From contig OX597821.1 of NCBI GenBank assembly GCA_951406725.2, forward strand, positions 110,546,001 through 110,610,000: 64,000 nt of DNA. The letters are read 5' to 3'. Position 1 is the stretch's first letter. Each line of letters starts with the position of its first letter. The position numbers and the translations under genes are program-made. Below the pieces are notes generated by a model. The model was not told where the DNA came from, did no database searches, and was given only the letters and a program-made list of their open reading frames with translations. The DNA comes from Octopus vulgaris. Its lineage: Eukaryota. Shown piece after piece: positions 14,637-14,977 of this stretch.

Positions 14637-14977
14637 AAGAATGAATGTTTTTATATATAATGAACGTGAAACACAGGAAGGGACGAACACGGAACACAGA
14701 CAAATCATTCGAAGCCTTCAATCTTCAGTCAGACACCGAACCATCATAGCAAATTTCGGCTGTTCAATTCTGATATTTGCTCCAACTCGGCCAGCCCCAA
14801 GAAAAAAAACTAAGCTGTAAGCATTAGATTTCTTGGTAGAAGACAGGAATGTGAACGCACAAGACGGATGTAAACACAAGAGACGAAAACGAAATTGAAA
14901 ACGGTAATGAACAAACAAAACATATATAACGGTGGTTGTCATACGACTTTAGACCAAATGAGACAGAAACAACATGT
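14637..14977 (-). mobile_element. TA-flanked short element carrying a permuted hammerhead (family P1)
   Basis: Long (TA)n on both sides; homologous to 25560-25860. Confidence 0.7.
14722..14796 (-). ncRNA. Non-circularly permuted hammerhead ribozyme candidate
   Basis: Minus strand GGCTG-g-CCGAGTT-gg-AGCAAAT-A-TCAGA-attgaa-CAGCC-GAAA-TTTGCT-atgat-GGTTCGG-tg-TCTGA-CTGAAGA. Confidence 0.7.

Follow-up and report, generated by a model that had tools for sequence, protein, structure and literature searches.

Three small units lie among the (TA)n tracts of a 64,000-nt stretch of the Octopus vulgaris genome (contig OX597821.1, positions 110,546,001 to 110,610,000; hereafter the window), and each holds a candidate hammerhead ribozyme with its conserved blocks in an unusual order. 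This raises the question of what kind of element carries such motifs, and of how an RNA arranged in this way could assemble a hammerhead core.

Three units with permuted cores

The window consists of AT-rich, microsatellite-dense DNA of animal type. The first unit, U1 (14638..14976, minus strand, 339 bp), lies between (TA)34 at 14570-14637 and (TA)52 at 14977-15081. U2 (25433..25862, plus strand, 430 bp) is preceded by (TA)10 at 25412-25432 and followed by (TA)n from about 25863, while U3 (plus strand) has a maximal extent of 57592..58397 between (TA)n tracts, with three options for the end of its body (about 58211, 58305 or 58397). The initial annotation had each unit bounded by (TA)n; this stands on both sides of U1, but the left end of U2 had to be moved from 25560 to 25433, and the right arm of the inverted repeat in U3 (see below) does not lie at a (TA)n tract. 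With the boundary of U2 corrected, insertion into (TA)n is seen at both ends of U1 and U2 and at the outer ends of U3. With 80 tracts of (TA)8 or longer in the window, and gaps of up to 900 nt between them covering 23% of it, a (TA)n flank is on its own a weak argument. The units had been described as non-coding and pyrimidine/GT-rich, and indeed the ribozyme strand contains 37-45% T and the six-frame translations gave nothing recognisable. U1 and U2 are homologous (81% identity over 137 nt by BLAST), U2 being a diverged relative of U1, and U3, which had no BLAST match to either, is a separate family. Further copies of the units were not found in the window with BLASTN or nhmmer, and no tandem copy of any unit was seen there.

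When the window was scanned for all six possible orders of the hammerhead blocks, each unit gave one site and the rest of the window none; the three sites share the order cleavage site-GAAA-CUGAnGA. Among 100 block-wise dinucleotide shuffles, no match in this order reached 11 Watson-Crick pairs. The permuted hammerheads first noticed in the sequence are thereby confirmed, and the permutation is a non-circular one: the units do not have the circularly permuted order of hammerhead types I, II and III, and do have the block order of type SGC (site, GAAA, CUGAnGA). CUGAnGA, GAAA, the NUH site and the A15.1-U16.1 and G10.1-C11.1 pairs are intact in all three units, and stems I, II and III can each form with 5-7 bp. 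No Rfam model matched the window at its gathering score, and a search by E-value gave no hammerhead among the 150 of 438 matches listed, almost all of which were microRNA-type models on microsatellites. A scan of GTDB with a 21-nt motif invariant in U1 and U2 gave no matches.

Strand order and helices

The structure is more unusual than a simple permutation, in that a break between A9 and G10.1 divides the catalytic strand. In all three units the partner of stem II lies upstream of the cleavage site, with a G opposite C11.1 and 5, 6 and 6 bp in U1, U2 and U3, respectively, so that CUGAnGA and G10.1 fall at opposite ends of the motif. This upstream strand continues into a stretch that pairs with the spacer before stem I over 9, 9 and 6 bp, a helix that is the stem I-stem II interaction helix built with the upstream strand. 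The ends of the motif are bridged by a closing helix (IV) and a hairpin (V): the bases after A9 pair with a far-upstream strand to form helix IV (pair probability 0.89-0.99), and hairpin V occupies the space between that upstream strand and G10.1. In U3, A9, helix IV, hairpin V and G10.1 follow one another without a gap. The pairing gives a strand order of IVa - hairpin V - IIa (with G10.1) - interaction a - IIIb/NUH/Ia - IIb/GAAA/IIIa - interaction b - Ib/CUGAnGA - IVb, and the architecture corresponds to the CSG/SGC ring of non-circular permutations with its opening placed between A9 and G10.1.

By this pairing analysis, the ribozyme of U1 spans 14706..14851 on the minus strand and has an AUA site, with the cut predicted after 14774. 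Its helix IV joins 14851-14839 to 14719-14706, hairpin V spans 14836-14797, stem II joins 14796-14792 to 14762-14758 and the interaction helix joins 14791-14783 to 14743-14735; stem III has 7 bp and stem I 5 bp, GAAA is at 14757 and CUGAAGA at 14728. The ribozyme of U2 (25650..25793, plus strand; AUC site, cut predicted after 25725) has helix IV at 25650-25663/25779-25793, hairpin V at about 25666-25703, stem II at 25704-25709/25736-25741, the interaction helix at 25709-25717/25755-25763, stems III and I of 6 bp each, GAAA at 25742 and CUGAAGA at 25770. That of U3 (57929..58045, plus strand; GUC site, cut predicted after 57993) has helix IV at 57929-57933/58041-58045, directly after A9, hairpin V at 57934-57966, stem II at 57967-57972/58001-58006, the interaction helix at 57973-57978/58022-58027, stems III and I of 5 bp each, GAAA at 58007 and CUGAUGA at 58034.

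Comparison of the homologous pair is consistent with this fold. Among 24 base pairs of stems I, II and IV and the interaction helix, U1 and U2 differ by three two-sided and five one-sided changes, none of which breaks a pair, and their identity is 105/129 columns across the hairpin and ribozyme, 80/148 upstream and 41/75 downstream. A strict descriptor of the split form, composed after the sequences had been seen, matched the same three sites in the window and nothing in 300 shuffles; a relaxed version matched the same three sites, yet also gave 22 matches in 60 shuffles. When the 70 nt upstream were shuffled 1000 times, the geometry of helix IV plus hairpin V arose by chance 93, 60 and 37 times. 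Against the fold, nested, pseudoknot-free structures of the three units are no stabler than those of shuffled sequences (z of -1.33, -1.01 and -0.76), and in them the core bases are drawn into other helices. In U1 and U3 the upstream strand of the interaction helix also has a rival, a downstream region of 25 nt that pairs equally well.

Type-SGC and type-CSG hammerheads (Eckert et al., 2023; PMC10085705) share with the units a cyclic block order, an interaction helix and the conserved core. Block C is assumed there to be indivisible, whereas that of the units is split at A9/G10.1 with two added helices, and the SGC examples came from metatranscriptomes and the CSG examples from soil metagenomes (two distinct sequences), whereas the motif of the units lies in an animal retroelement. 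According to the same paper, none of its permuted ribozymes lies in the genome of a known organism, one doubtful bacterial type-GCS case excepted. Known hammerhead alignments are stated there to hold no insertion of more than 1-2 nt beside CUGAnGA, so that activity of a split core is unprecedented there, and the accessible parts of two other papers (PMC3088659, PMC10162972) likewise give no precedent for a helix inserted at A9/G10.1; another mentions hammerhead variants 'containing additional helices', giving no detail (PMC13725137). Also related is a pistol-like pseudoknot hammerhead (PMC11300833), which, as the units do, has extra helices near stem II and keeps A9-G12 and G10.1-C11.1, but in which A9 and G10.1 close a short stem of the pseudoknot loop; the portion of that paper available describes neither a non-circular permutation nor an A9/G10.1 split. 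The minimal hammerheads of PLEs (Penelope-like elements; Cervera and de la Pena, 2014; PMC4209133) are of circular type I and dimeric, with a palindromic stem III of 1-2 bp, and the units differ from them. By analogy, the ribozyme of the units would work like the terminal-repeat hammerhead of a PLE, with the block order of the SGC/CSG family.

Resemblance to Naiad 3' ends

Naiads are PLEs with an N-terminal GIY-YIG domain that frequently target (TA)n and show 5' truncation, inverted 5' copies and tails, a tail of 30-40 bp having been described (Craig et al., 2021; PMC8557442). They are reported there to have no canonical hammerhead, with only 'core' and 'half-core' strings noted, and hammerheads are considered perhaps dispensable passengers. 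We inspected by eye the last 420-600 nt of 34 of the 54 consensus 3' ends in its supplement (File S5), with element names assigned from file order. The split form was seen in eight of the 34 (Obim, Ovul, Esco, Amil, Plae, 2_Movir, 3_Chem and Bfor), that is, in two Octopus families and in Naiads of Euprymna, Acropora, Pomphorhynchus, Morbakka (its second element), Clytia (its third) and Beroe. It has weak points in some of them: stem I of Bfor has 2 bp, stem II of Esco contains a mismatch, helices IV and V are weak in Plae, and helix IV is short in Obim and Ovul. A complete type-CSG hammerhead with a long interaction helix was seen in a further six (1_Nbra, 2_Nbra, 3_Nbra, Hcon, Hpol and Smim, from three Nippostrongylus elements, Haemonchus, Heligmosomoides and one spider), four ends were ambiguous, and 16 had neither in the stretch viewed. 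Six Chlamys 3' ends viewed in the same way showed no such hammerhead.

The Octopus families with this architecture are annotated as targeting (TA)n (PMC8557442), and their core lies about 80 nt from the 3' end, compared with 91-93 nt in U1 and U2. None of nine unit-specific motifs of 12-14 nt matched the published Naiad consensi exactly, so that what places the units in this clade is their architecture, position and target rather than homology of sequence. Cephalopod Naiads are, moreover, described as old remnants (PMC8557442), whereas the repeat arms of U3 are identical, which speaks against the assignment. The units resemble Naiads in the 3'-terminal motif, the (TA)n target and probable 5' truncation, and U3 perhaps in an inverted copy and a tail as well; they differ in being ORF-free, whereas Naiads encode GIY-YIG at the N-terminus, CxC and an RT with DKA (PMC8557442). 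A partial tandem (pLTR) arrangement is absent from the units, and some of the Naiad consensi seen are also marked 'no pLTR'. From this combination of traits we conclude that U1-U3 are very probably of Naiad-type origin, and that they probably represent 5'-truncated 3' ends from at least two families, each with a split hammerhead that likely cuts at its NUH site. The suggestion of a new system, a PLE lineage with a pseudoknotted permuted hammerhead, survives in its second half, as the same architecture is found at published Naiad 3' ends, those of Octopus included; the system itself is not new, since Naiads were described in 2021 (PMC8557442). The carrier lineage is thus probably known, and the ribozyme topology is undescribed in the literature that we searched, a search that covered few subscription papers and found neither a link between Naiads and permuted hammerheads nor a description of an A9/G10.1 split.

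The most serious competitor to random 5' truncation is that U1-U3 constitute defined, non-autonomous elements resembling retrozymes or SINEs, which arose from Naiad ends and are mobilised in trans, a reading that we regard as possible but the less probable of the two. It would fit the presence of three intact ribozymes in a 64-kb stretch from which remnants of a Naiad ORF are absent, the description of cephalopod Naiads as rare remnants (PMC8557442), and the argument that animal retrozymes derive from PLE pLTRs (10.64898/2026.07.22.740005). Against it, there are no tandem copies in the window, the 5' extents of U1 and U2 differ (203 versus 293 nt before the cut) and align poorly, and Naiad 3' UTRs, judging from the consensi seen, are long enough to yield truncations free of ORF. 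The non-LTR retrozymes of animals are, like the units, short, non-coding, hammerhead-bearing and PLE-related, but they are defined as tandem units with type-I hammerheads (10.64898/2026.07.22.740005), and U1-U3 are single and permuted. The label 'retrozyme-like' was therefore not borne out, the units being single copies and not tandem arrays.

The remark that no ORF is linked to the units also holds: no Naiad ORF accompanies any of them within the window, although the window does contain two unlinked PLE coding remnants. Of 338 high-complexity reading frames, the 150 longest were compared with Pfam, which gave five matches at E <=0.01, two of them meaningful, and no host protein-coding exon was recognised among these 150 frames; the window may be intronic or intergenic. 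One match belongs to a decayed LINE at 26200-28280 (minus strand; RVT_1, E 3.9e-7), with endonuclease-like frames upstream, stops and frameshifts, which from its motifs we take to be APE-type and CR1/L2-like. Its RT fragment at 26734-27045 was considered as a partner of U2 and rejected, as it lies on the opposite strand in this decayed element and is separated from U2 by another repeat. The other match lies in the 3' end of a PLE at 63036-64000 (minus strand), which runs off the edge of the window and has a 253-aa frame in which CxxC-type motifs precede GIY-YIG (PF01541, E 2e-4), 71% identity to an RT plus GIY-YIG protein, a frameshift near the end and then (TA)n. Its domain order is presumably that of a Neptune-like element, and this 3' end contains no CUGAnGA. 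The GIY-YIG frame (63241-63999) was rejected as a partner of U3, the endonuclease being C-terminal, 4.6 kb away and on the opposite strand. A second remnant (21629-22398), which we assume to be Penelope/Poseidon-like, is framed by inverted ends of 90 bp with 84% identity. Both ends carry a hammerhead-like motif of the minimal type I, intact in the left one, and between them, at about 21717-22090, lies a decayed frame resembling an endonuclease (weak tblastn match, E 0.001; no Pfam match). The two PLE coding remnants and the LINE RT are insertions separate from U1-U3.

Minimal type-I PLE hammerheads thus occur in two families elsewhere in the window. The other of these is a family of elements of about 250 bp (1839-2018, 22487-22609, 25944-26190, 42848-42925 and 56228-56390), probably classic PLE pLTR derivatives, in which the core is canonical in one copy and has U or C in place of A at position 6 in the other four. 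Several abundant families of 150-200-bp repeats, which by their motifs we take to be SINE-like, often adjoin (TA)n; copies include 202-360, 15082-15243, 18105-18266, 56949-57113 and 62747-62910, and 15354-15527, 31902-32082 and 56714-56893.

Predicted cleavage and competing folds

In the mechanism that we propose, U1-U3 would be 3' UTR or pseudo-LTR parts that reached their (TA)n sites through the GIY-YIG endonuclease and RT of the element itself, both presumably encoded by longer copies elsewhere. Helix IV and hairpin V would stack as a junction and bring A9 back beside G10.1, so that a normal core could assemble; PLE hammerheads already carry an extra nucleotide at this position (PMC4209133). 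The RNA would most likely cut itself at the NUH site (AUA, AUC or GUC), processing read-through, long or tandem transcripts. As four helices (IV, II, interaction and III) span the cut, the products should stay paired, which would favour re-ligation or the formation of circles. All three copies cross the cut site, extending 203, 293 and 351 nt upstream of it in U1, U2 and U3, and the templates would therefore have been uncut or re-ligated RNA. This agrees with what is reported for a Poseidon PLE (PMC11167929), which used mainly uncut RNA as its template and whose ribozyme depended on a protein of the element; on the other hand, insertion in vitro did not require cleavage there, and no RNA-seq ends mapped to the site. 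The predicted ribozyme is likely to be active in the six-helix fold, and self-contained action as a monomer is plausible.

We favour a monomer over a dimer. The same helices in an element of the same Naiad origin might instead work as a helix-swapped dimer formed by two pLTR copies in tandem, which we think rather unlikely though the geometry lends it some weight. Stem III is nested with the interaction helix, and short links connect the two on either strand (1 nt and 4 nt in both U1 and U2, 9 nt and 7 nt in U3); together they would make a single long stem, the end loop of which has to pair with the strands that leave its base, and a monomer would need a bend of nearly 180 degrees. Metazoan PLE hammerheads, moreover, act as dimers (PMC4209133). 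However, stem III of the units consists of 5-7 bp between two distinct strands, unlike the palindromic stem III of 1-2 bp that forces dimers, at least one link of 4 nt or more is present in all three units, and SGC/CSG ribozymes with one very short link at that place cleaved in single-copy constructs (PMC10085705).

For U3 the inverted repeat invites a different explanation. Its left arm (57592..57642, minus strand) and right arm (58255..58305, plus strand) form a perfect 51-bp pair, so that the inverted ends earlier given as 50 bp are real. Immediately beside the left arm there is (TA)n, whereas a T-rich extension of 92 nt (58306..58397, plus strand), of which the window holds no second copy, separates the right arm from the (TA)n at 58398; a degenerate TA tract lies inside the unit at about 58212-58240. 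The left arm is a probable inverted 5'-truncated copy made at insertion, and the extension a possible PLE 'tail' or host flank. U3 could on the other hand be a MITE with 51-bp TIRs and a TA target duplication that captured a ribozyme fragment, or the repeat could be a duplicated microsatellite flank of the host, but we consider both improbable. In favour of these readings, the arms are perfect with TA at each outer end, their sequence is largely TATG/TACA repeat, like many host tracts, and the extension exceeds the 30-40-bp tail described for PLEs (PMC8557442). Yet inverted 5' copies are typical of Naiads (PMC8557442), the Penelope-type remnant in the window shows inverted ends of this kind, 90 bp long, U1 and U2 lack inverted ends, the extension shares the T bias of U3, and perfect arms with outer TA occur in the window in one copy only. 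As for the Naiad trait of an inverted copy with a tail, an inverted arm is seen in U3 alone, where it may be host microsatellite and the extension is 92 nt long against the 30-40 bp described.

The units were at first read as plain type SGC, with the stem II strand right after CUGAnGA, and the upstream helices would then be an inhibitory switch; we now consider this very unlikely as the active form. A downstream stem II of 4 bp can be drawn in all three units, after inserts of 5, 5 and 1 nt, and the downstream region of U1 and U2 can pair with the spacer too. The 5' strand of stem II in type SGC, however, follows CUGAnGA by no more than 1-2 nt, so that the 5-nt insert required in U1 and U2 does not fit. 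The post-core partner is also the weaker, in U3 as well: duplex energies are -8.4, -8.4 and -8.8 kcal/mol for the upstream stem II partner versus -5.0, -5.0 and -3.3 kcal/mol, favouring the former by 3.4-5.5 kcal/mol, and the downstream strand is sequestered in helix IV at the pair probabilities given above (0.89-0.99). By eye, the downstream stem is absent from Amil, Plae, 2_Movir, 3_Chem, Bfor and Esco, and the upstream partner begins with G10.1 in every Naiad case read. A decayed or non-catalytic motif acting only as a protein-binding or RT-initiation signal, as the dispensability of the Poseidon hammerhead for insertion in vitro (PMC11167929) might suggest, is equally doubtful, for the CUGAnGA, GAAA, NUH, A15.1-U16.1 and G10.1-C11.1 elements are kept in all three units while the stems turn over, and the same core retention is seen by eye across five phyla in the Naiads viewed.

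Returning to the split fold, we think it rather more probable than otherwise that this is an active natural hammerhead, its strand interrupted between A9 and G10.1 and re-closed by two helices, and that it serves as the 3' ribozyme of many Naiads from ctenophores to cephalopods, with type CSG in those of nematodes and a spider. If so, its topology lies outside the six permutations considered possible and breaks a stated design rule of hammerhead topology, non-circularly permuted hammerheads are common in animal genomes, and Naiads are not ribozyme-free; the scrambled order of the conserved parts would explain why their hammerheads were missed. Such a ribozyme would link two observations, the absence of hammerheads from Naiads (Craig et al., 2021) and the permuted hammerheads left without host or role (Eckert et al., 2023). 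Should the motifs cleave, permuted hammerheads would be placed in the genome, within a retrotransposon clade that ranks among the most abundant of invertebrates, and the argument from hammerhead absence would fall for many Naiads. The two type-CSG sequences from soil metagenomes might then be fragments of Naiad-type elements.

Other Naiad ends among those viewed carry different motifs. Three crustacean elements from Darwinula and one from Paralithodes have a CUGACGA core that resisted parsing. The cnidarian ends 1_Movir and 4_Chem show by eye a motif that, from the consensus, we take to be twister-like. Another conserved 3' motif is common to CGi, 2_Pfla, 1_Skow and 2_Chem, from oyster, hemichordate and one Clytia Naiad, and Naiads may swap ribozyme classes.
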